The position numbers and the translations under genes were made by a program. The notes below the pieces were generated by a model, which saw only the letters and a list, made by a program, of their open reading frames with translations, was not told the origin of the DNA and did no database searches. 32,000 bases of DNA from Candidatus Saccharimonadota bacterium (lineage in GTDB: Bacteria > Patescibacteriota > Saccharimonadia > Saccharimonadales > UBA4665): positions 420,001-452,000 of the forward strand of contig CP023991.1 in assembly GCA_003516025.1 (NCBI GenBank), in the 5' to 3' direction. This document shows, in pieces, positions 15,180 to 27,178 of this stretch; the first letter of the stretch is position 1; each line of letters begins with the position of its first letter.

Positions 15180-15196
15180 AACGGGATTATAGCATA

Positions 15197-15222
15197 TAAA
15201 AAGACCTCAAAATCTGAGGCCT
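15197..15222 (-). terminator. intrinsic terminator-like hairpin upstream of the lepB promoter
   Basis: The minus strand reads AGGCCTCA-gattt-TGAGGTCT followed by TTTT. Confidence 0.6.
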
Positions 15223-15239
15223 ATAAGCATAAGCTTTAT

Positions 15240-15269
15240 GGCTGTCCATCGTTGACGTACTTCGCAACT
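15240..15269 (-). repeat. copy 2 of the 30-nt repeat
   Basis: Identical to 14605-14634. It abuts the left edge of the AT-rich island. Confidence 0.8.
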
Positions 15270-15384
15270 ACGAGCAAATACAAAATTTGGCGAAATGATA
15301 ACATAATGTACTAAGATGTTAATGTCGGACAATTAGCAATTAAGTAAGTTATGTAGGTTATGAGACATCTTATCTGGATAATAA

Positions 15385-15406
15385 TGTCACTAGTGACAGG
15401 TATGAT
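15385..15406 (+). promoter_or_regulatory. perfect 14-bp palindrome TGTCACTAGTGACA followed 2 nt later by TATGAT; candidate operator overlapping a promoter
   Basis: Palindrome at 15385-15398 and -10-like TATGAT at 15401-15406, about 60 nt upstream of the ATG at 15465. Confidence 0.45.
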
Positions 15407-15464
15407 AGTAATTTTAATCGGAGGCACCCACCCATCATTGCCTCATTTGAATAGAGGATTCGAT

Positions 15465-16229
15465 ATGTCTGATGAAATTACGGCAGGAATAATCGGCGCC
15501 GGAGCTGGATTAGTCGGTGCTTTAATTGGGGCATATGCCGGTTATAGGTTTAATGAGAAGCTTGAAGCAACGCGTACTAAGGAACGCCGTCAAGTACAAA
15601 CAAAAAACACTATTTTCTCGCCAATTTATAAACAGCTCACAGGACTGAAAGCATTTTTAGATAATCGGCAAAATCCCTTAGCCCCTAATATTTCAGTTCA
15701 TTTCGCAAACGACAGATACCATGGCGGACTTAGCTATACCTTCGACATATGGGAGAGTATGAAGCGGGACATACGTAAATTATATATTCCAGTAAGTAAG
15801 CGTGAAGAACTAGATAAATTAACAAAAGTTATAGTGGATCATATGAATCTTCAGCAAGTTGTCCAAGCGTCCATTATTCAAATTGCTGTATCGTTTGCAG
15901 CGGAACATAGAGATCGTTTAAAAACGCCTTCTAGTTGGAATCCGCGGTTTATGGGAAACGCGTTGGATGTTTACTCGTCCGGCATCGCTTACCCTCGCAT
16001 TAAAGACGATATTAAAGAACACTTAAATTCTGGGTTCAACTTTAGCCCGGAAGAACAAGATCAGTTTGCTACCGAGCTACTGAAGAGAGTGGATGAACAT
16101 GAAAATCAAAAGCGTCTTATTAATAGCTTCAATCATGTCATGTCAACAATAGTACTAGTAACAGAATCATTTGAAACACTAGTCAGCGAGATAATTACTA
16201 AATACGAAGGAGGTGTTGATGTTAAATGA
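15465..16229 (+). CDS. hypothetical membrane-anchored protein (glycine-zipper-like N-terminal TM helix)
   Basis: 254 aa from ATG 15465, with AGAGGA SD 6 nt upstream. The track start at 15360 has no SD. TM segment GIIGAGAGLVGALIGAYAGY. The rest is soluble with no motif I recognise. Confidence 0.6.
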   Translation: MSDEITAGIIGAGAGLVGALIGAYAGYRFNEKLEATRTKERRQVQTKNTIFSPIYKQLTGLKAFLDNRQNPLAPNISVHFANDRYHGGLSYTFDIWESMKRDIRKLYIPVSKREELDKLTKVIVDHMNLQQVVQASIIQIAVSFAAEHRDRLKTPSSWNPRFMGNALDVYSSGIAYPRIKDDIKEHLNSGFNFSPEEQDQFATELLKRVDEHENQKRLINSFNHVMSTIVLVTESFETLVSEIITKYEGGVDVK

Positions 16230-16440
16230 TATAGGCCTGAGTAAAGCCGAGATTCGAAGAGAAATACAAAAACATTTAGATGAAAATGCTGACTTAGTAA
16301 TTGGAATAGATGACCCTGAAATGGTGCAGCTTATCGAAGTATTATGCGACGGATTTTCTGAAGCAATTTCCGCTAACAATAAAAAAATTGCGGATGATTT
16401 AAAACGTAACGACCGAGATATGGCTATGCGTCTTCGATAA
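16219..16440 (+). CDS. hypothetical small acidic protein, translationally coupled to the upstream gene
   Basis: 73 aa from ATG 16219. GAAGGAGG SD lies 5 nt upstream, inside the 3' end of the previous ORF, and the two ORFs overlap by 11 nt. Confidence 0.55.
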   Translation: MLNDIGLSKAEIRREIQKHLDENADLVIGIDDPEMVQLIEVLCDGFSEAISANNKKIADDLKRNDRDMAMRLR

Positions 16441-16447
16441 GTAGGCG

Positions 16448-17323
16448 TTACTTTGCTTTACCAATTTTGTTCATTAGTAGCTCATTCTTTTTACGCGATA
16501 TCCAGTAAACGAAATCAAAAATCAAAGGGGCTGTGATACGGTGACTATATATTGCATCTTGCAGTGCGCGTATGTCGGCCATATCAACTTGTTGTGTTTC
16601 GCTTGCGGCAAGAAGGGATTTTGATCTATTCAAATTAGCTTCTGCATTTTTTATTGCTTGGAAATTCTTATAACATTCAACAATCATGGTTTGAAATGCG
16701 GGAATCATCGGAACTATGATAACCAAAATGAATTCTTTTAGTTTTAAATCTCGCATATTTCCGACGTAAATTAAAACAAAGAATATTACAATTACTAAAG
16801 CTGTTGTTGTGATTGTGTATTTCGTTCTAAGACTGCCATCCCACCACGAATTTATTCTTTGAGCCGTAATGATTGCTTTGCTTTGTTCCCATCGAGGGCT
16901 AATCGTATACCAGTTTTTTAATCGAGGATCTTTATTTTTCTTCAGGAAAGTTTTTTTATTGAGTAATTTGTCTGCCCACTCTTCGATCACTTCTTTAATG
17001 TCAGGTTTATTAACGATGATTACATTCAAGGGTATCTCTAGAACGTGATGATCGAATAACTCCTGAATAGAGGCAGCAGTTTTTATATAGTTTTTTATAA
17101 TCAAATACAGTGCGGCATTAATGGCAATTACAGCGATACCCAAGATAGCTATGTGTGATGCAAACTGTGGTTTGAATATCGTAGCAAAACTAAAGACAGG
17201 GACTACAATAATATTAAGCAGAAGGGTTAATGCCCAGTATTTTTTTGCATGTGAGTAAATCGCTCTTTGGGCGGCAAGAAGTCGGATTGCTTTCTTCTCA
17301 TTCTGTTTTTTGATGCTGTTCAT
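16448..17323 (-). CDS. four-TM effector, S-4TM-like (SMODS-associated) CBASS effector candidate
   Basis: 291 aa with two TM hairpins (YWALTLLLNIIVVPVFSFATIF and IAILGIAVIAINAALYLII, then ALVIVIFFVLIYVG and FILVIIVPMIPAFQTMIV) separated by a soluble insert. It lies 1 nt downstream of the nucleotidyltransferase gene. Confidence 0.7.
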   Translation of the reverse strand: MNSIKKQNEKKAIRLLAAQRAIYSHAKKYWALTLLLNIIVVPVFSFATIFKPQFASHIAILGIAVIAINAALYLIIKNYIKTAASIQELFDHHVLEIPLNVIIVNKPDIKEVIEEWADKLLNKKTFLKKNKDPRLKNWYTISPRWEQSKAIITAQRINSWWDGSLRTKYTITTTALVIVIFFVLIYVGNMRDLKLKEFILVIIVPMIPAFQTMIVECYKNFQAIKNAEANLNRSKSLLAASETQQVDMADIRALQDAIYSHRITAPLIFDFVYWISRKKNELLMNKIGKAK

Positions 17324-17324
17324 A

Positions 17325-18233
17325 TCAATAGTTGTAATTAGGAAATTTATTATTAAACAGTAAATTTAACCAGTAGAACGCATCCTTAAAGTTACCACCT
17401 ATTGTAGCATTCATCGCTTTTTCACTTCTCACCATTGCCGTATGTATCTTGCTAAGTGCCGCTGTTTTCTTATATTCAGAATTGCATGCTGCGATATAGC
17501 CAACTATTCCTGTGGGATCTTGTAACTGCGCAAGATTTATAGAGTATAGATCTTTGAAATAATAATGTAGATGTACGACATAGCTTGCGACAGTGCCTTT
17601 TTTGAAATACGTCTCCGCATATTTAGCGGCTCTCATTTCTAAATAGAATGACGATATATCTACGACATTATAGTATTTCCATGCTTTGATGAATCTTATG
17701 AATGTTTTTACCTCGTAATTGTATGTGGTGTTAACCTCTGTTACGTAAGCATTATGAGCTTTTGGGGCTGTCTTAATCCATCCTCCGTTACCATCGGCGA
17801 TTCCATAGACGGGTATGCCGCTCTTCGTAAATTCTATTAAGTAACCGGGAACTACCTCGTTAGTCTCGACGCCGTATAAGCCAAATGGCACAACAACAGC
17901 AGGCGTACTAACGTGGACATTTGATTTAGGAAAGGTGTAATTCAGCTGATCTCTGACTTTAGTAAGCATTGTGGTTGAATTTGAAGTAAGCTGTTTTTCG
18001 GGTATCAATGCCATGTAATCAATATCACTGTAGTAGATGATGTCTGTTGAGTTGCCAGACGAGCCGCTCTGAAAAAAATAGTTAATTGTATAAATTTTTT
18101 CAAGGCTTGCAAGAACACTAGCTCTATGACCCTTGGCAGCATCCCTGGCTGTACTATTGGGTTTCAACGAGGTATGAAATTGGTCAAAAGCTACTTGTAG
18201 AGTACGTGGCATGTCCTTAACCCTTTTAACCAT
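17325..18233 (-). CDS. SMODS/CD-NTase-like nucleotidyltransferase (CBASS cyclase candidate)
   Basis: 302 aa with the pol-beta NTase signature G57-S58, 11 residues, then D70-I-D72 (QSGSSGNSTDIIYYSDIDYM). A candidate third acidic residue sits in the NEVVPG strand (E126). The alternative start is ATG 18212, because the ATG at 18233 overlaps a TGcTACAAT box. Confidence 0.8.
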   Translation of the reverse strand: MVKRVKDMPRTLQVAFDQFHTSLKPNSTARDAAKGHRASVLASLEKIYTINYFFQSGSSGNSTDIIYYSDIDYMALIPEKQLTSNSTTMLTKVRDQLNYTFPKSNVHVSTPAVVVPFGLYGVETNEVVPGYLIEFTKSGIPVYGIADGNGGWIKTAPKAHNAYVTEVNTTYNYEVKTFIRFIKAWKYYNVVDISSFYLEMRAAKYAETYFKKGTVASYVVHLHYYFKDLYSINLAQLQDPTGIVGYIAACNSEYKKTAALSKIHTAMVRSEKAMNATIGGNFKDAFYWLNLLFNNKFPNYNY

Positions 18234-18614
18234 TGTAGCACTAATGCTTAATAAAATAGCAATACTGACAAACTAAGTATTTGTCTTATGTTAATTTCTG
18301 CATTATAGTGTCTGGTAGCCTTCGAGATAATTCCATGACAATCCTGCAAGAGAAAGCTAAAGCGGCACAATTCCGCAAAAACCTCGCAGATCGCTGCGTT
18401 GTAATGAACAAGCCAGTCTGACGCGTATCCCGAAGATACAAACATAAGTAGATATGCCGTACGCAAGTCGAGGCCCTACTTAGTCAGATAGAACCTTTGA
18501 TTGCGAAACAGGTACTGCCACTCGCGACAAAGCTCAATCACCGTTTTTAGGTGTGCTCTATAAAGAGCGAGTTTTGTTGTGTCCTAGTACCGCAATATAA
18601 GAATCGATATTTAT

Positions 18615-18640
18615 AACCACCCAGAAATGGGTGGTTTTTT
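18615..18640 (+). terminator. strong intrinsic terminator with no annotated upstream plus-strand gene
   Basis: AACCACCCA-gaaa-TGGGTGGTT followed by TTTT. Confidence 0.6.
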
Positions 18641-18667
18641 AATACATAAAAATAGGAGGGATTTTAT

Positions 18668-18808
18668 ATGACGAAAAATCCAAAGCAGTTAGAACTTAAG
18701 TTCAACGTGAAGACCCGCAGCGATGGTGCTAGGAGCCGTGCGCCGCACCGGCGGGGCGGGCGTCCTGTATTACTTGATATACAGGACATAAATAGGGTCA
18801 TTTCATGA
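18668..18808 (+). CDS. small basic ORF (46 aa) coupled to rep by an ATGA overlap
   Basis: AGGAGGG SD lies 7 nt upstream. The product is MTKNPKQLELKFNVKTRSDGARSRAPHRRGGRPVLLDIQDINRVIS. The ORF is below the track size cut-off, and coding status is uncertain because the region also carries the origin-like hairpin. Confidence 0.4.
   Translation: MTKNPKQLELKFNVKTRSDGARSRAPHRRGGRPVLLDIQDINRVIS
18762..18787 (+). promoter_or_regulatory. candidate rolling-circle double-strand origin: 9-bp stem presenting TACTTGAT in the loop (CTTG/ATA nick-site consensus)
   Basis: GTCCTGTAT-tacttgat-ATACAGGAC. ACTTGATAT matches the nick region I recall for phiX174 and the CTTGATA core of pC194-class origins. It lies 18 nt upstream of the rep ATG. 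Confidence 0.6.
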
Positions 18809-19674
18809 ATAATGATCTCAACAAAATCGAGTCAATATTTGGAAAAATTAAAAAAATAGATGCCAGCTACGAGGTACGTGCCAGTGCGAAGTACTACCCT
18901 CATCATACAAAAGTATTTATTCCGAATGTTCCATACAGAAAAATGATTCCGTTCATGGAGCAACGCATTGATGATCTTGACGACATTGTAGAGGACTGGG
19001 ATACGAGGGTTATTGCTGATTCAAAAACATCAACTGAGGACAATTTGGAGCGGTCAATCCGCAGAACGAAAACACTTATTTCCGATTACGTTCTTTGTAA
19101 CGATTTTGATATATTCGCTACCTTTACCTTTTCCCCTAAGAAAACAGCCGATCGTACTGACACCCGTACCGTTAAACGCCAAATGAGTAACTGGATAAAA
19201 AACCAAAAAGCACGTAACAGCAATTTTGCATATTTGATTGTTCCAGAATTCCATAAAGACGGTAAGTCTTTGCATTTTCATGCACTTATCCATGACTATC
19301 CAGGCGAGCTCATCGATTCAGGCAATCGAATAAATGGCAGAAAATCGTACAACTTTAAAAGTTATACCCTCGGTATCAATAGCGCGGTAAAGATAGACGA
19401 CCGCCATAAAGTATCGAACTATGTTAAGAAATACATAACAAAAGACATGCCCCAGTTTCCCGGCAAGCACCGCTTTTGGTCTTCCACTGGCTTAGAGCGG
19501 CCACGGGTAGAGGATAACCCAAGTGAGTGGTACCTACAAGCAAAGCCACAGCGGGTATATGAAAATGAGTACGGGTGTACGCTCTACTTCATTACCGACT
19601 CGTCGCAAGCCACTGAGTCTCATAGTCTCACTGAAGGCAGCACTCCGCCATCGCTCTCGGAGAAAGACGCCTAG
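18805..19674 (+). CDS. HUH rolling-circle replication initiator (two-tyrosine, phiX174 gpA / Microviridae-like motif 3)
   Basis: 289 aa with motif 1 FATFTFSP, motif 2 SLHFHALIH (H157-F-H159) and motif 3 NYVKKYITK (Y206 and Y210). Confidence 0.85.
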   Translation: MNNDLNKIESIFGKIKKIDASYEVRASAKYYPHHTKVFIPNVPYRKMIPFMEQRIDDLDDIVEDWDTRVIADSKTSTEDNLERSIRRTKTLISDYVLCNDFDIFATFTFSPKKTADRTDTRTVKRQMSNWIKNQKARNSNFAYLIVPEFHKDGKSLHFHALIHDYPGELIDSGNRINGRKSYNFKSYTLGINSAVKIDDRHKVSNYVKKYITKDMPQFPGKHRFWSSTGLERPRVEDNPSEWYLQAKPQRVYENEYGCTLYFITDSSQATESHSLTEGSTPPSLSEKDA

Positions 19675-19675
19675 T

Positions 19676-19771
19676 ATGGCTTTGTCTTCCACTGACTTAG
19701 ATGCGTGGAAGGCTTACTTCAAGCTGCTTGCAGAACTCGACAAGAAACAGAATAAGAAGGACGCTAAATGA
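19676..19771 (+). CDS. possible 31-aa ORF between rep and the recombinase gene
   Basis: The ATG lies 1 nt after the rep stop. The product is MALSSTDLDAWKAYFKLLAELDKKQNKKDAK. There is no SD and the call is very tentative. Confidence 0.25.
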   Translation: MALSSTDLDAWKAYFKLLAELDKKQNKKDAK

Positions 19772-19811
19772 GCTATAATGTATATAAATTAAATCGGCGG
19801 TAACGGTGGGA

Positions 19812-21335
19812 ATGCATGCTTTTCTCATCGCTCGCGTATCGACTGCTGATCAGGTGGAAGCCTTGCCGGCTCAAGTCTATAAATTAACCGACTATGCTAA
19901 AAGTCAGGGTTACGATTTTGAGTTGTTCGAGTTTCATGAAAGCGCTTACAAAGGCACTCGAGAAAAGTTCCGCGAAGTCATAGCTACCATACAGGCGTCG
20001 ACCGAAAAAGTAGTCGTTGTCTTTGATAAAGTCGACCGTTTCACTCGTGATTCAAGCGCAGAAGAAACAAATATTTTCAAAAAGCTGTATCAGTCAGGAA
20101 AGATCGAGCTACATTTTCCATCTGAAAACCTGATACTACACGAAGGTTCACCGTCTACCGACAGAATGCGCCTCGGACTGAATACGATATTTGCAGAGTA
20201 TTACTCCGACGCTATAAGTGATAATGTAAAGCGCCGCAACTATCAGCTATGGAGAGACGGCTATTGGACCGGACCCGCACCGTTCGGATATGTAAATATA
20301 TCAAAACCAGATGGCAGTAAATGGATAGATAAAGTACCCGTTGAAGCATTAGCAGTGAAATTAGCCTATGAGTTATATGCCACTGGAAGCTACTCGCTCC
20401 GGCTTGTTCGCATGCAAGTTATAAAGCAATACGGTATTTCTCGTTCAATTGGCCAATGGGATAAGGTGCTCAAGAATCCGTTCTATGCAGGACAAATGAG
20501 AATCAAAGGCAAGCTGTACAAACACAACTATGAACAGCTCATTAACTCGTCATTATTCGATCAAGTTAAAGCCGTGCGGGAAGGTCATGCGATACAACCA
20601 AAAAGGTGGGCTGGCTTGCCGTATCCATATCGTGGACTTATTACGTGTGCTGACTGCGGTTGTAAGGTGACTTTCGAGATAAAGAAAGGCAAGTATGTAT
20701 ATGGTCACTGTACGCAGTTCAGAGGTAAGCACGATGCAGCGTATGTTAATGAAAAGTTAATGACAAAACAGCTTAGATCAGTATTCTGGCAGATACAAAT
20801 ACCGGAAGATGCTTATGAAGAAGTATCAAAAGCATTACTGGCTGATGATGAACAATCAAACCGACAAAACAGTGAAAAGCTAGAGCATATTAACGCCGAA
20901 ATCAAACGCTATGAATCGAAAATTGAACGTAATTACGATATGTATTTAGACGGCGGCATAAGCAAAGAAACCTATCAAAAGAAGCATGACGAATTGACAT
21001 TAATTAAGGCCTCACTCGAAAGCACTAGAAAAAATATCGAACTTATGGCGAACAATAATTATGACGGTGCATTACATCTGTTAGAGCTATCTCGTAAAGC
21101 GCCTGATTTATTTGAGACTGCTGAAATTGAAGAACGCCGTACGCTCATCAATATGGTACTTTCGAACTTGGAGCTAGACGACAAAGAACTTTGGTGGAAA
21201 CTAAAAGAACCATACGATTGTATGGTTCTTTGTAATGAAAACGCAAATTGGCTGGGGATGAGGGATTCGAACCCCCGAATGCTGGTACCAGAAACCAGTG
21301 CCTTACCACTTGGCGAATCCCCAATATATATGTAA
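19812..21335 (+). CDS. large serine recombinase (integrase)
   Basis: N-terminal resolvase domain with the catalytic-Ser context AFLIARVSTADQ, a recombinase domain, a zinc ribbon (CADCGCKVTFEIKKGKYVYGHC) and a C-terminal coiled coil. The last 28 codons read antisense through tRNA-Gln and beyond. The track start is GTG 19806. Confidence 0.9.
   Translation: MHAFLIARVSTADQVEALPAQVYKLTDYAKSQGYDFELFEFHESAYKGTREKFREVIATIQASTEKVVVVFDKVDRFTRDSSAEETNIFKKLYQSGKIELHFPSENLILHEGSPSTDRMRLGLNTIFAEYYSDAISDNVKRRNYQLWRDGYWTGPAPFGYVNISKPDGSKWIDKVPVEALAVKLAYELYATGSYSLRLVRMQVIKQYGISRSIGQWDKVLKNPFYAGQMRIKGKLYKHNYEQLINSSLFDQVKAVREGHAIQPKRWAGLPYPYRGLITCADCGCKVTFEIKKGKYVYGHCTQFRGKHDAAYVNEKLMTKQLRSVFWQIQIPEDAYEEVSKALLADDEQSNRQNSEKLEHINAEIKRYESKIERNYDMYLDGGISKETYQKKHDELTLIKASLESTRKNIELMANNNYDGALHLLELSRKAPDLFETAEIEERRTLINMVLSNLELDDKELWWKLKEPYDCMVLCNENANWLGMRDSNPRMLVPETSALPLGESPIYM
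21249..21323 (-). tRNA. tRNA-Gln (anticodon CUG), CCA encoded
   Basis: The reverse complement folds as a cloverleaf. Acceptor stem UGGGGAU/AUCCCCA, anticodon arm CUGGU-UUCUGGU-ACCAG, T arm GGGGG-UUCGAAU-CCCUC, discriminator G plus CCA. Length 75 nt. Confidence 0.95.
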
Positions 21336-22903: not shown

Positions 22904-24442
22904 CTAGACAGTGTCCAGGGTGTTCTTTCGTGTGGTCTCCAACCGCACCTCGCTCTCTTTGAGGATGTCGTGGCCGTGCTCGGTCTTGTGCCAGGTGTAG
23001 CGGGTCTTGCGACGAGCGAGCTCGAAGAGGACCCGGTACGCCGACCAGCTGGTGAAGATCCACCAGAAGGGTGCGAGCAGCATGTACTTGACGCTGCCGT
23101 AGCCCTCACGGTCGAGACATGCCGTAACCAGCTGCAGGAAGAGCAGCAGGTTGCCGACCAGGAGCAGTGCCACGCCAGTGTAGAACACCGGAGTGGGGAA
23201 CAACTGCTCGATGGCCTGCGAACCATCGGTGTAGCCCGCGACGCGAGTCACGAAGTACGCGATGGTCAGACCCCAGTAGATCGGGTTGAGCATCAGGCTG
23301 AAGGGCGTACCCAGCATCAGCAGGTTGAAGCAGAACCACTTGACGGGTCCCATCTGCCGAGCCGTACGTACCGGCTGCCTGGTGTAGACCAGACCGGTCT
23401 GCAGGTAGCCCTTCAGCCAGCGGCGTCGCTGCCCATCGGCCACGCGGACACGGGAAGTTGCCTCCTCGTAGGTCACCGAGTCGATGATCTTGATGTCGTA
23501 GCCGTACATGGCGAGGGCGCCAGCCAGCTCCGCATCCTCGGTGACGTTGTACGAGTCCCATCCGTAGGCGGCATCGGTGCCACCGGGGAGTGCCGGGAAC
23601 TCGCTCTGCGGGAAGGCGATCTTGCGGAGCACCTCCGTGCGGAAGTGGTTCGAAGTTCCTCCCAGCGGCGGTACCAGGTTGAGCTTGGCCAGCCCCGCCA
23701 GGTTGTACACGAAGTGCACCACGTACTCCGCCCAGTAGAACCGGGTGACCCACGAGGTGTCTTCGTTCCAGAACTGCAGCCGGGCCTGCACGCAGGCGAC
23801 GGTGCCTTTCTGGTCCTTGCGGAACTCGGCCACTGCCTTGAGCAGCTGGTCCGGGTCCGGACGGTCCTCGGCGTCGTAGATGACACTGAAGACGCCGGTG
23901 GCACGGGCCAGGCCGATGTTGAGCGCGCGCGGCTTGCCCTTGGGCTGGTTCATGCGCGCCTGGCCCTGGGGGATGCCCGGTGCGACGATGATCTCGAAGT
24001 TGTCCGGCAGGTCCATGATCTGGGCCTCCAGGAGGGTCTCGGTGTCATCTTCCTCGAGCAGCAACAGCACCTGCAGCCTGTGCTTGGGGTACTGGAGCTG
24101 GCTGAGGTTGTACACCAGCGCCGGCAGGATCTGGGCCTCCCTGTAGAGGGGAACCAGGGCGGTGTAGGTCGGCAGATCCGGGTCGTTGATGCTCAGCGGC
24201 GGCGTTGCCGGTGAAGATCCGCGGACCTGGAGTGATGCCACGAACAGCACGGCCTTCAGCAGCATGATGCAGCCGTAGAAGGTCAAGCTGATGTCGACGA
24301 GCACTTGCAGCGTGCCGGTGGTGAAGAGCACCAGGCCGACCAGGACTGCGAACAGGCCCAGTGCGAGGGTGATCTTCTGGCCGGTGCTCAGGAACACCCG
24401 GGCTGAACGCCGCGGCAGTGCCTTGTTGCGATGACCGCTCAC
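22904..24442 (-). CDS. membrane-embedded processive family-2 glycosyltransferase (cellulose/chitin/hyaluronan-synthase-like)
   Basis: Motifs VIYDAEDRPDPDQL, VTEDAELA and QRRRWLKG (the D, D, D, QxxRW signature), flanked by TM helices. The start is reassigned to GTG 24442, which forms a GTGA overlap with the upstream stop and has GAGGAG SD upstream. Confidence 0.85.
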   Translation of the reverse strand: MSGHRNKALPRRSARVFLSTGQKITLALGLFAVLVGLVLFTTGTLQVLVDISLTFYGCIMLLKAVLFVASLQVRGSSPATPPLSINDPDLPTYTALVPLYREAQILPALVYNLSQLQYPKHRLQVLLLLEEDDTETLLEAQIMDLPDNFEIIVAPGIPQGQARMNQPKGKPRALNIGLARATGVFSVIYDAEDRPDPDQLLKAVAEFRKDQKGTVACVQARLQFWNEDTSWVTRFYWAEYVVHFVYNLAGLAKLNLVPPLGGTSNHFRTEVLRKIAFPQSEFPALPGGTDAAYGWDSYNVTEDAELAGALAMYGYDIKIIDSVTYEEATSRVRVADGQRRRWLKGYLQTGLVYTRQPVRTARQMGPVKWFCFNLLMLGTPFSLMLNPIYWGLTIAYFVTRVAGYTDGSQAIEQLFPTPVFYTGVALLLVGNLLLFLQLVTACLDREGYGSVKYMLLAPFWWIFTSWSAYRVLFELARRKTRYTWHKTEHGHDILKESEVRLETTRKNTLDTV

Positions 24443-26013
24443 GGCTTCTCCTCGAAGACGTAGTAGGAATTGTTCTGGAAGGCCAGCGTGTAGCCGTCCA
24501 GTTCCGGCGAACCGTCGAGGGTGGTGTAGACCTCGTCCGGCTGGTCGGTGTGGCGCATGACGATCCACTGGATGTCACTGCCTGCGGGGTGGGCCAGGGC
24601 CGGCTCCCAGAGCTGGTAGCTGCCCTCGTAGAGGTTGGCCCCTGTCGGGATGCCGGCCTCGAAGAGGACGAGCTCGTTGCCGAACGACTCCATGAGCACC
24701 AGGCCGCCCTCGTAGTGTTCCTTGAGGTAGGCGCTGGCCTCGGAAGAGTCCGTGCTGTAGCTGGTGTCGAGTGCCACCACCGGCTCCTTGAGTGTCACGA
24801 CGTTGCTGGTGTCCGTTGCCGTCCACAAGCCGAACATCACGACGAAGCCGATGATGACCACGCTGGCCATCTGCGTGTAGATCCTGCTGGTGAGCAGGCT
24901 CGACAGGTAGCCGATCAGCACTGCTGCTGGCAGAACCATCAGCAGACCGAAGCGCACGTTGTACAAGTCACCGGAGATCTGCTCGACGTGCAGCGGCCGC
25001 TGGCCACTGTAGAGGGCGAACACGAAGAACGGGAACAGCGTCAGGAGCGACAGAACCGGCAGCGAGTGCGCGGACAGCCGTTCACGAACGATGTACCCGA
25101 TCAGACCGATGACGGCCAGCACTGCGATCGGCAACCAGAGGTTGCTGACCGTCGCGATGGTGTAGGTGCGCAGCGCGACTAGCGGGTGTCCCAGCGAGGG
25201 TTCACCGCTGCCGACCCAGAGGGACGGCTTGGCGTACTCGCCGACCTGGAAGCTGAGCGGGTTCCCGAAGATGATCAGGTTCCACAGCATCCAGCCGGAG
25301 ATGGCGATTCCGCCGATGATCGCGAAGGCGATGACGGTGCCCTCGATCTTGCGACCTTCGAACTTGGAGCGCCATCCCATGATCCCGATCAGAACCGTCA
25401 GTACTGCGAACAGCACCCACGCTTCGTAGCGGGTCAGGCATCCTGCCAGTCCTGCCAGCCCGGCACCGATGAGGTAGCCGAACCGGTCAGTCTTGATCCA
25501 GCGCTGTGCACCGTAGACCATCCCCGCCATGCAGGCGAAGAGCAGGAGCTCGGTCATCGGCGTGGACTGCATGTACAGCACGTTGGGGTTCAGCATGAAC
25601 ACCAACGCACCGACGATGCCGGCCAGCTTGTGACCCGTGAGGTCGACGACGATCTTGTACAGCAGCGCGCTGGTGATGACGTAGGCCACCATCGACACGA
25701 TGCTGCCAGCGAAGCCGTTGAAGTACAGCGGGTCGATCCAGACGAACGGCAGGGACAGCAGGTGGGGCAGCGGAAGCCACACTCCACCGAGCTGCGCGAA
25801 CGACATGCCGCCGGACGGGTTGTTCAGTGTCCGGCTGGCGATCTCGAGGTGCGAGATGCCGTCCTTGTACGCCAAGATCACGCCCTTCTGGAAGAAGTAC
25901 GTGAACGAGGCGACCGACAGCAGGCTGGCTACGAGCGCCACCCAGCGGACGGTCTTGTCACGCTGCGGTGGACTGATGACCATGGGGTCACGGTCGAGTG
26001 TTGCGGTAGCCAT
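24439..26013 (-). CDS. polytopic membrane protein, putative GT-C-fold (ArnT/PMT-like) glycosyltransferase
   Basis: 524 aa with about 11-13 TM helices, a first loop carrying YKDGISHLEIA, and a C-terminal soluble domain. Its position after a polyprenyl-phosphate GT2 fits a three-component Gtr-type system. The family assignment is an inference. Confidence 0.7.
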   Translation of the reverse strand: MATATLDRDPMVISPPQRDKTVRWVALVASLLSVASFTYFFQKGVILAYKDGISHLEIASRTLNNPSGGMSFAQLGGVWLPLPHLLSLPFVWIDPLYFNGFAGSIVSMVAYVITSALLYKIVVDLTGHKLAGIVGALVFMLNPNVLYMQSTPMTELLLFACMAGMVYGAQRWIKTDRFGYLIGAGLAGLAGCLTRYEAWVLFAVLTVLIGIMGWRSKFEGRKIEGTVIAFAIIGGIAISGWMLWNLIIFGNPLSFQVGEYAKPSLWVGSGEPSLGHPLVALRTYTIATVSNLWLPIAVLAVIGLIGYIVRERLSAHSLPVLSLLTLFPFFVFALYSGQRPLHVEQISGDLYNVRFGLLMVLPAAVLIGYLSSLLTSRIYTQMASVVIIGFVVMFGLWTATDTSNVVTLKEPVVALDTSYSTDSSEASAYLKEHYEGGLVLMESFGNELVLFEAGIPTGANLYEGSYQLWEPALAHPAGSDIQWIVMRHTDQPDEVYTTLDGSPELDGYTLAFQNNSYYVFEEKP

Positions 26014-26780
26014 CAGGCTGCCATCTCCTTGGAGTCGTGGTGCTTGAGCGCACGCTTGAACTTGCGGTTGATGCGGTTCAGCTCCCTGATGGAACTGAAG
26101 GCCACATGGATCTTGGCGCCCGACTGCTTGCCGTAACGGCGCGGGCCGTGCGTAACGCCGACGTTCACCACCCGAAGCTGGTGTTCCTTGACGTACCGCA
26201 TGATCTCCGGAGAGATCGCCGCGCCCTGCATGGCGGTCAGCTGGTCGGCGAAGAGCTTGAGGCCCTCGCGCTTGAACAGCTTGAAGCCGCAGTCGACGTT
26301 GAACGCCTCGTGCTTGACGATCGCCCGCGAGAGCAACTGCCAGGCATGGCCGATGAGCTTCCTCGTCCAGTTGTCGGCACGTTTGATCCTGAAGCCGATG
26401 GCGACATCCGCGTTGGCGGAGAGCGCTTCGTTCAGGAGCTTGCTGACTTCCTGGGGAGCGAACTGCCCGTCGGCATCGCAGAACCCGATCCAGTCGTAAC
26501 CCATGGCCAAGCCGGTCTTGAGGCCGGTCTGGAGGGCTCCGCCGTATCCGAGGTTCCGGATGTGGGTCTCGGTCCGCACCTTGTCACCGTAGAGGCTTTC
26601 GAGGCGCTTGCAGACCGTGGACGTGTCGTCCTTGCTGCCGTCGTTGACGATGATGACGACGAACTCGTGCCCCTGCTTGTCCAGGTGGTCGACGGCTTCG
26701 CCTACCACGAAGGGCAAGTTCTCCGCCTCGTTCCAGGCCGGCAGGAAGAACGCGATGCTGGGCTTTGCTGAAGTGTCCAT
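26013..26780 (-). CDS. family-2 glycosyltransferase, polyprenyl-phosphate sugar synthase type (GtrB/Ppm1/DPM1-like)
   Basis: 255 aa from ATG 26780 with IAFFLPAWNEAENL, VNDGSKDDT, NLGYGGAL and CDADGQF. The TAATG overlap with gtrA and the TGATG overlap with the next gene indicate coupling. The track's extension to 26963 is rejected. Confidence 0.85.
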   Translation of the reverse strand: MDTSAKPSIAFFLPAWNEAENLPFVVGEAVDHLDKQGHEFVVIIVNDGSKDDTSTVCKRLESLYGDKVRTETHIRNLGYGGALQTGLKTGLAMGYDWIGFCDADGQFAPQEVSKLLNEALSANADVAIGFRIKRADNWTRKLIGHAWQLLSRAIVKHEAFNVDCGFKLFKREGLKLFADQLTAMQGAAISPEIMRYVKEHQLRVVNVGVTHGPRRYGKQSGAKIHVAFSSIRELNRINRKFKRALKHHDSKEMAA

Positions 26781-27178
26781 TAGACACCCCTTTCTGGTTG
26801 GAAGACCACGTGGTGGTTGATCAGGAAGGTGCAGACAGTGCTGAGCAGCGTCGCGAAAATTGCCGCGACTAGACTTGGGAGAGCACAGACGTTGTGCGCC
26901 AAGCCAAACAGTAGGCTGTTGATGCCGAGCGCCAGTGTGGCGTTGAAGGCAAACTTGAGCCATGTCAGCAACAGATACCCACCAGTACGCCGCGCAGAGT
27001 CACCCCAGGTAAAGGTGTAACTGAGCACGAAGTTCAACTGAGCGGATATCATGAAACCAATGCCGTTCGCATAGAGCGCGGGCATGTAGTGTTCCAGCAG
27101 GTGCAGTAGTAATAACTGGACGAGGAAACACAGCAACCCAACTCCAACGAACTTTATCTGTCGGCTCATGTATTCCAA
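26780..27178 (-). CDS. GtrA-family small membrane protein (polyprenyl-phosphate sugar flippase-like)
   Basis: About 130 aa with four TM helices and FVGVGLLCFLVQLLLLHLL at the N-terminus. 27178 is a TTG, so ATG 27169 is the likelier start. Confidence 0.75.
   Translation of the reverse strand: MEYMSRQIKFVGVGLLCFLVQLLLLHLLEHYMPALYANGIGFMISAQLNFVLSYTFTWGDSARRTGGYLLLTWLKFAFNATLALGINSLLFGLAHNVCALPSLVAAIFATLLSTVCTFLINHHVVFQPERGV

Follow-up and report, generated by a model that had tools for sequence, protein, structure and literature searches.

We analysed a stretch of 32,000 nucleotides (nt) from a Candidatus Saccharimonadota bacterium (contig CP023991.1, positions 420,001 to 452,000; hereafter the window, in whose own numbering coordinates are given unless another locus is named) and focused on two adjacent genes, A and B, that lie beside a cyclic oligonucleotide-based antiphage signalling system (CBASS) on a small mobile element. 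Gene A, in its long and conserved form, spans 15360..16229 on the forward strand and encodes 289 amino acids (aa), as judged from the frame open from the ATG at 15360 and from the N-termini of homologues. Gene B follows on the same strand (16219..16440) and encodes 73 aa, an acidic helix-loop-helix according to the list of open reading frames (ORFs), the homologues and an AlphaFold2 model. This organisation is the one described in the original prediction, which was made from the sequence by eye: two ORFs, each driven by a Shine-Dalgarno (SD) sequence, overlap by 11 nt (16219-16229), the second product is small and acidic (isoelectric point 4.7, net charge -5.4), and a spacer of only 7 bp (16441..16447) separates the stop of B from that of the convergent CBASS effector gene, with no terminator-like site found in between. 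The SD sequence of B is AAGGAGG at 16207-16213, and B starts 5 nt beyond GGAGG.

The two genes almost certainly form a real and conserved operon. An exhaustive profile search of 1.8 billion representatives of 50%-identity clusters (cut-off E<1e-3) retrieved 127 representatives of the A family, 37 of them below 1e-10, and a profile search for B retrieved 63 clusters. B is encoded directly 3' of A in 11 of the 12 independent contexts (the window, L001, L002, L003/4, L005-7, L097, which is the same as L010, L013, L014, L103, L104/5 and L106); in the twelfth, L008, B is at the edge of the contig and A lies beyond its end. The junction varies between loci, from overlaps of 11, 8, 4 or 1 nt to a gap of 12 nt, and the pair ranges from Patescibacteria to an isolate of Bacillota, Pseudalkalibacillus sp. 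JSM 102089 (L014; GCA_041366475.1). An all-against-all BLAST of every ORF lying up to 4 kb from the pair showed consistent recurrence between loci for A and B only: no conserved third gene was found in that range, where DUF5677, RadC and VanY proteins are only sporadic. Sequence comparison further indicates that both genes are under purifying selection, so that the pair has the coding conservation whose absence, according to the original prediction, would have refuted it. The proportions of nonsynonymous and synonymous differences (pN and pS) are 0.25 and 0.80 for A, relative to L002, and for B they are 0.14 and 0.84; pN of B is 0.14-0.28 among homologues and, over both genes, pN remains at 0.14-0.39 while synonymous sites are saturated (pS about 0.8).

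One lineage carries a broken copy of A. In L003 (9850-9852), and also in L004 from a second sample, A has an in-frame TAG where the homologue P0009 has a glutamine codon (CAG). This splits A into pieces of 237 and 52 aa, and the downstream B is intact. That full-length A has been lost here and B retained fits a model in which A is the harmful partner, whose loss is tolerated.

The original prediction had described the first protein as one of 254 aa with a single N-terminal helix, and had placed a dedicated palindromic operator and a promoter in front of it. The helix in question, a glycine-zipper anchor, is indeed there, but the conserved protein is longer and has two helices. The N-terminal extension, residues 1-35 of the window protein, is conserved in P0002 (63% identical to A), in P0003 (42%), in P0009 and in the L003 copy, with L4, W6, I7, P28 and N31 invariant among close homologues. 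The methionine at the 'MSDE' position, where the 254-aa form starts, is missing in P0003, P0009 and L003. Since the extension is conserved and the internal methionine is not, we take the conserved form of A to be the protein of 289 aa with two hydrophobic helices. The extension is also coding DNA by its substitution pattern, because pN is held below pS there (0.37 vs 0.69; 0.23 vs 0.82 in the remainder of A). Gene callers disagree on this point, as identical DNA was called as 254 aa by one (P0001) and as 289 aa by another (L009). The internal ATG at 15465 has a better SD sequence (AGAGGA, 6 nt ahead of it) than the ATG at 15360. From these sequence features, a short isoform of 254 aa (15465..16229, forward strand) may be made in this element, but it is not a conserved feature of the family. 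We therefore rejected a dual start of the holin/antiholin kind as a family trait, because the internal methionine is not conserved. The family differs from holins in other ways too: these are transmembrane (TM) proteins under about 150 aa encoded beside an endolysin, and A has 289 aa, a large cytoplasmic domain and no adjacent endolysin.

The letters of the supposed operator are present. The palindrome TGTCACTAGTGACA (15385..15398, no strand) is followed 2 nt 3' by TATGAT at 15401-15406. It lies within the coding sequence of A, encoding S-L-V-T in the first hydrophobic helix, and its occurrence is at chance level: three perfect 14-nt palindromes are observed in the window against 2.3 expected, and at least one is present in 89% of shuffles. 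The corresponding stretch of L002, the closest homologue, contains neither the palindrome nor TATGAT, and a promoter scan called no plus-strand promoter at this place. Not above chance, in coding DNA, absent from L002 and with no promoter called, the operator-controlled promoter was rejected. The case calls for some methodological caution, since a palindrome and a TATGAT box that had been read by eye as an operator and a promoter proved to be part of a conserved coding region.

A is most strongly conserved in its membrane-proximal helix. The first hydrophobic helix, LIWIIMSLVTGMIVILIGG, covers residues 4-22 (15369..15425, forward strand, as are the following motifs; helix 2-21 in the AlphaFold2 model) and holds the palindrome. 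The other N-terminal helix is the hallmark of the family: a GxxxG glycine zipper at residues 43-62 (15486..15545), in which G53 is invariant and G57 nearly so (at least 90%) across 44 diverse members. All members inspected have the zipper segment, whose Kyte-Doolittle hydrophobicity is about 1.1-2.1, and a second N-terminal hydrophobic segment is found in about 60% of the family. Right after the zipper comes the best-conserved part of A, a juxtamembrane basic motif at residues 72-93 (RTKERRxIQxKNxIxSPIYKQL in the window, 15573..15638; RTKERRxIQ(R/T)KNxI(Y/F)SP(I/L)YK(Q/E)L in the family), with K82, I85 and Y90 nearly invariant. A second motif, WxxxKxDIRKxY at residues 131-142 (15750..15785), is conserved in the 44 members as WxxxKxDIRxxY, with W131, D137 and R139 invariant. 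At the C-terminus the family conserves KYEGG, with E283 nearly invariant. In the window the YEGG motif (codons TAC GAA GGA GGT, 16203..16214) contains the SD sequence of B, so that the E-G-G codons serve both genes. The motif is retained where B does not overlap A (L014) and where B is absent (L015), and is thus a feature of the protein as well.

The AlphaFold2 model of the 289-aa protein, built with 44 sequences, is of high confidence (predicted local distance difference test score, pLDDT, 90.6; predicted template modelling score, pTM, 0.78). Except for a short beta-hairpin it is all-helical: helix 2-21 is followed by a single continuous helix, 38-101, that runs through the glycine zipper and the conserved basic motif, and then, after the hairpin, by a five-helix bundle. 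A is thus predicted to be held in the membrane at its N-terminus, through one or two helices, and to expose a helical domain of about 190 aa. This domain should be in the cytoplasm, because basic residues cluster right after the second membrane helix, and only a loop of about 20 aa is predicted to face outward. In two distant members, P0085 and P0133, the A domain stands behind an extra polytopic N-terminal region with 8-9 hydrophobic segments and no Pfam match, which suggests that the A module can be attached to larger membrane domains.

B has the invariant core DL.IG.DDPE..QL...L......NN..I, whose invariant loop reads IGIDDPE in the window copy. Its AlphaFold2 model, built from five sequences, has a pLDDT of 82; in it the conserved acidic loop connects a short helix to one of 40 residues. 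B lacks a signal peptide and, by its sequence, is probably cytoplasmic, on the same side of the membrane as the domain of A, together with which it would be made because the two genes are translationally coupled. No Pfam domain above threshold was found in B, and neither Pfam nor the PDB sequences yielded a DNA-binding domain of the helix-turn-helix (HTH), ribbon-helix-helix (RHH) or AbrB type.

The original prediction recognised no motif in these proteins and proposed searches for remote homologues. Its statement that they belong to no recognised family holds, as neither A nor B matches Pfam, NCBIfam or PHROGs. In PADLOC-DB v2.0.0 both retrieved no family at E<0.1, in the same run in which the cyclase and the effector of the neighbouring CBASS were matched strongly. 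A Pfam scan of the 44 A members returned only scattered single matches and no known toxin family, and was uninformative for the members with polytopic N-terminal domains (P0085, P0133 and others). The Pfam glycine-zipper families (Gly-zipper_Omp, Gly-zipper_YMGG and Rick_17kDa_Anti) match neither A at E<0.1 nor any of the 44 members. The proposed structure-based search was run with Foldseek for both proteins and returned nothing significant: for A the best hits have E = 0.2 in the PDB and E = 0.03 in BFVD, with TM-scores below 0.3 and no real match, and for B the PDB gave only insignificant matches to fragments of baseplate proteins. Profile searches of the PDB sequences detected no relative of either protein, and a scan of the IMG/VR viral contigs none of A. 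We found no description of the pair in the literature on glycine zippers and anti-phage defence, on Saccharibacteria and CBASS, or on DUF5677. No library searched thus yielded a known relative of either protein family or of the fold of A.

A defence gene recognised by PADLOC is encoded within three genes of the pair in 8 of the 12 independent contexts. In the window, A-B neighbours CBASS on a compact serine-recombinase element. In L001, a conjugative element with a type IV secretion system, a Drt6/Drt4-like reverse transcriptase (E = 6e-108) is directly upstream of the pair, and an ApeA-like HEPN protein and a weak DUF5677 protein are also present. L003/L004 is an islet at the 3' end of a tRNA-Gln(ttg) with a DUF3800_VII protein, L008 has a DUF4238 neighbour, L015, in which A stands without B, has a SIR2-like protein, and L103 has an IS200 transposase and SoFic. 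L097, represented by more than 20 contigs, is a serine-recombinase element whose integrase-distal end carries the operon SNase-202 aa-A-B. L106 is another serine-recombinase element, in which a trypsin-like protease is followed by A-B, DUF5677 and AbiEi/AbiEii. The remaining contexts show no recognised defence gene: L013 has a YaaC-like neighbour only, L014 (in Pseudalkalibacillus) has the pair at the margin of an FtsK/Replic_Relax element that adjoins a prophage, and L005 and L104 have no recognised neighbour.

These contexts also show that the pair moves between unrelated elements. Three unrelated serine-recombinase elements (the window, L097 and L106) bear the pair distal to the integrase; the integrase of the window is only 24% identical to that of L010, and the Rep protein of the window has no counterpart at the other A-B loci. 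According to a recent preprint, small serine recombinases mark defence loci (doi 10.1101/2025.10.07.681051), a precedent only loosely related because the recombinases at A-B loci are large ones. Some contexts show no visible mobility genes (L003, L104 and L015). Homologues of the CBASS cyclase and of its 4TM effector were found in none of the 11 other A-B contexts. The pair is thus very probably a mobile cargo of defence islands that is independent of CBASS. The check proposed in the original prediction, that homologues of the pair co-occur with defence islands across genomes, came out positive: they adjoin defence genes and sit on mobile elements in many other genomes. Its description of a tightly coupled, uncharacterised two-gene module on a defence-carrying mobile element is likewise supported, and its suggestion that the module modulates CBASS is not.

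Several loci have further neighbours of note. In L097 (4745-7264), A-B close an operon of four genes whose stops and starts overlap. The first of the four specifies a membrane-anchored SNase-like nuclease that matches the PADLOC family C3a212 (SNc+LTD), the second a 202-aa protein of unknown kind. A DUF5677 protein is encoded directly downstream of A-B in L106 (7282-8019; Pfam E = 1.7e-31), and a weak DUF5677-like protein two genes upstream of the pair in L001 (7539-8225). DUF5677 could be an occasional third partner or another resident of defence islands. VanY-type D,D-carboxypeptidases that are 42% identical to each other adjoin the A-B locus in a Saccharibacteria genome (L003, 7046-7819, where the tRNA lies between the VanY gene and the islet) and in Pseudalkalibacillus (L014, 11471-12355); this recurrence may be a coincidence. 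L015 (10001-12034) has a YfbU-domain protein ahead of A and, after A and a gap of 171 nt, a SIR2-like protein of 358 aa. Either the partner of A has been exchanged there or the SIR2-like gene, whose SIR2 matches are weak (E about 1e-6), may belong to an unrelated neighbouring system.

The element that carries the pair in the window is small. It spans 15180-21335 (about 6.1 kb) and encodes only a serine recombinase, a Rep protein, a type I CBASS and A-B, which makes it little more than a mobile vehicle for two cargo modules. It is inserted at the 3' end of a tRNA-Gln in a Saccharibacteria-like (Patescibacteria) genome, and its G+C content (36-44%) is lower than that of the left flank at 11-14 kb (46-50%). 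MetK of this genome has its closest relatives in genome bins of Candidatus Saccharibacteria (64% identity) and Patescibacteria (59%), which assigns the host to the Candidate Phyla Radiation. The CBASS operon (16448..18233) is on the minus strand and converges on gene B. It comprises the S_4TM effector (16448..17323, Pfam E = 5.5e-63) and the CD-NTase, a SMODS cyclase (17325..18233, PADLOC E = 1.5e-100). A rolling-circle Rep (PF23343, detected in family scans; 18805..19674) and the large serine recombinase (19806..21335) follow on the plus strand. A 21-nt direct repeat (TTGGTCTTCCACTGGCTTAGA at 19476-19496 and TTTGTCTTCCACTGACTTAGA at 19681-19701; 90% identical and 205 nt apart) flanks the stretch that holds the 3' end of rep and the intergenic region between rep and the integrase gene; it could be a replication-origin or a recombinase-binding feature. 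The recombinase ORF spans, on the opposite strand, the whole of the tRNA-Gln(ctg) (21249..21323, minus strand), so that its last ~29 codons are antisense tRNA. This probably puts the crossover of integration at the tRNA's 3' end, and the integrase of the excised form may end in a different C-terminus from that of the integrated form. No convincing attachment-type (att) direct repeats were found at the element, which is what a serine recombinase would lead one to expect. The closest genome, a bin of a related Saccharibacteria lineage (L017), retains the tRNA-Gln(ctg) and metK but has other genes at the site of the element and does not share the left flank, and the left boundary of the element is therefore not fixed. 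Elsewhere in the window, the G+C content rises abruptly to 61-64% at 23000-27000, against about 47-50% in the rest. This block includes an ORF of 554 aa with many hydrophobic stretches (22904-24568, minus strand) and may be a separate acquisition from a donor with high G+C content or an assembly chimera.

Convergence with CBASS has a possible transcriptional consequence. Downstream of the CBASS operon, the strongest candidate for a terminator on the minus strand is a hairpin with a 9-bp stem and a T run at 15222-15202 (feature 15202..15222, minus strand), beyond the 5' end of A. On the way to it the minus strand has just one other site, a weak stem of 5 bp (16248-16234) in the A/B overlap region. 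Because the strongest candidate lies past the 5' end of A, transcripts reading through from CBASS would be antisense to both B and A. As far as the sequences tell, this convergence is a local property of the element, since the other loci have different genes downstream of the pair.

What might the pair do? That its function is immunity or addiction seems to us a little better than an even bet. The best single reading, to which we give a probability of about 0.4, is an autonomous, mobile and membrane-acting module of the abortive-infection or toxin-antitoxin type. The pair would act on its own in defence. B would bind the cytoplasmic domain of A and keep A inactive, until infection or the loss of the element removed or displaced B. 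Freed A would then self-associate via its glycine-zipper helix and compromise the membrane, which would either stop phage production or kill the cells that had lost the element. This specific division of labour, in which B restrains A and A damages the membrane, is put forward tentatively, and the odds are clearly against its holding in full. A bolder version also strikes us as doubtful, if less so: that A-B is a new immune system against phages or mobile elements, with an unseen fold, in which A is a membrane-tethered sensor-effector gated by B, native to the ultra-small, symbiotic Patescibacteria and exchanged with Bacillota.

Several observations weigh against reading the pair as an abortive-infection or toxin-antitoxin-like module. 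Four of the 12 contexts lack a recognised defence gene (L005, L014, L104 and L013, which has YaaC only). No homology links A or B to toxicity, membrane damage or phage resistance, and the single glycine-zipper anchor would also suit a plain membrane tether. B is without a DNA-binding domain through which it could autoregulate, and a putative toxin gene in first position is the less common order in toxin-antitoxin modules. Of the two proteins, B is also the more conserved whenever two loci are compared (for example 68% vs 41%, 64% vs 33% and 41% vs 27.5%), unlike the usual fast-evolving antitoxin, and one A homologue, that of L015, comes without B, the sole such case. Finally, a scan of GTDB species-representative genomes with two back-translated A motifs detected no relatives at the sensitivity used, and tblastn of A and of a Firmicutes-type member against the PLSDB plasmids and the INPHARED phages gave no match. 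Since the family is absent, at the sensitivity used, from these plasmid and phage databases and from the GTDB representatives, the term 'mobile' rests on metagenomic contigs.

The higher conservation of B invites the reverse assignment of roles, in which A is the variable membrane-tethered sensor or anchor and B the conserved adaptor or effector, acting on a host or phage target once released. Immune sensors usually diverge faster than effectors, and this is the pattern seen in each pairwise comparison. Moreover, the SIR2-like protein that follows A in L015 takes the place of B, as if the partner were exchangeable. We nevertheless regard this alternative as unlikely. A 70-aa helix-loop-helix without an enzymatic motif makes a poor effector, intact B persists beside the nonsense A of L003/L004 and is thus evidently harmless in the absence of full-length A, and the gene in L015, whose SIR2 matches are weak, may be an independent system.

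A second alternative is that of a superinfection- or entry-exclusion complex, in which A in the membrane, with B as a cofactor, would block the injection of phage DNA or conjugative entry without killing, like the membrane proteins of prophages of the superinfection exclusion (Sie) type. The membrane anchor, the occurrence in a conjugative element (L001) and the position at the distal end of integrated elements, classical for 'morons' (the window, L097 and L106), are all in its favour. Yet nearly all of A and the whole of B are predicted to be cytoplasmic, with only the loop of about 20 aa facing outward; the pair also occurs in a chromosomal-looking context (L104), and no homology to known Sie or entry-exclusion (Eex) proteins was found in PHROGs or Pfam. 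This makes exclusion quite improbable. The same can be said of a pure addiction module, which would stabilise mobile elements by post-segregational killing and have no immune role. A compact and translationally coupled pair on several unrelated mobile elements is what such a module would look like, but the pair also occurs where mobility genes are not visible (L003, L104 and L015), is specifically co-located with immunity genes in 8 of 12 contexts, and shows neither an antitoxin-type DNA-binding domain nor a known toxin fold.

The pair might also have nothing to do with immunity and be an ordinary membrane pair of variable regions, e.g., a tether in envelope stress or regulation similar to an anti-sigma factor and its partner. 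Some contexts do look chromosomal (L104 and L015), and VanY carboxypeptidases are encoded near the pair in two distant lineages (L003 and L014). Such a pair would hardly be expected to have so sparse and patchy a distribution (127 clusters and none in the GTDB scan), different neighbours at every locus, a nonsense allele in one lineage and an enrichment in mobile-element and defence neighbours; we think this improbable. Lastly, that A-B is an accessory regulator of the adjoining CBASS, either by antisense or convergent transcription or through proteins that tune the 4TM effector, finds some ground in the 7 bp between the stops and in the position of the terminator candidate, but is very improbable, as the lack of cyclase and 4TM effector homologues at the other A-B loci largely refutes it, the pair is convergent with the CBASS operon and not within it, the PADLOC models of CBASS accessory genes do not match, and transcriptional interference, if there is any, would be an accident confined to this element.

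As a candidate abortive-infection or toxin-antitoxin-like module, A-B belongs to a familiar kind, that of small two-gene membrane-associated modules of defence islands. It is rare, and one of many unannotated families of such islands. Should it serve immunity or addiction, the catalogue of membrane-acting defences would gain a family without sequence or structural relatives. The genomes of Saccharibacteria and other Patescibacteria are tiny, and little is known of the defences that they encode. An immune system native to them would be among the very few to have come from the Candidate Phyla Radiation and to be largely restricted to it. The module consists of only two genes (about 1.1 kb), and a homologous pair is present in the named isolate Pseudalkalibacillus sp. 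JSM 102089.

The pair resembles several known systems in part. CBASS accessory (Cap-type) genes recur in association and co-orientation with CD-NTase operons, which A-B does not. The TM effectors of CBASS, Pycsar and retrons (e.g., S_4TM) resemble A in being membrane-anchored, encoded in defence loci and thought to kill by perturbing the membrane. However, A matches no PADLOC TM effector, has no nucleotide-sensing domain and is never in an operon with a signal-producing enzyme at any locus. Glycine-zipper membrane proteins, which include channel-forming toxins such as VacA, share with A a conserved GxxxG helix of small residues that could drive homo-oligomerisation in the membrane; in A, by contrast, the zipper is a single helix on a large cytoplasmic domain, and it matches no Pfam Gly-zipper family.

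Type II toxin-antitoxin modules of the toxin-first kind (higBA or mqsRA style) are closer in organisation: they too are compact bicistrons with overlapping stops and starts, found in mobile elements and defence islands, and A and B are, like their genes, adjacent, co-directional and translationally coupled, with overlaps of 11, 8, 4 or 1 nt. The retention of the small partner where the large one is lost, as in L003/L004, is a further likeness. The differences are that B has no domain of the HTH, RHH, AbrB or Phd type, that A is a membrane protein without a known toxin fold, and that B is the more conserved of the two. The RexA/RexB pair of phage lambda, a membrane-acting two-gene abortive-infection system, has no sequence or fold similarity to A-B and distributes the roles differently: in Rex the membrane protein is a small channel with four TM segments and the soluble protein is a large sensor, whereas in A-B the large protein is anchored and the soluble partner has 73 aa. 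The two pairs are nonetheless alike in consisting of two adjacent genes on an integrated mobile element, expressed in the lysogenic or integrated state, with one partner embedded in the membrane and the other cytoplasmic, and with loss of membrane integrity as the proposed output.

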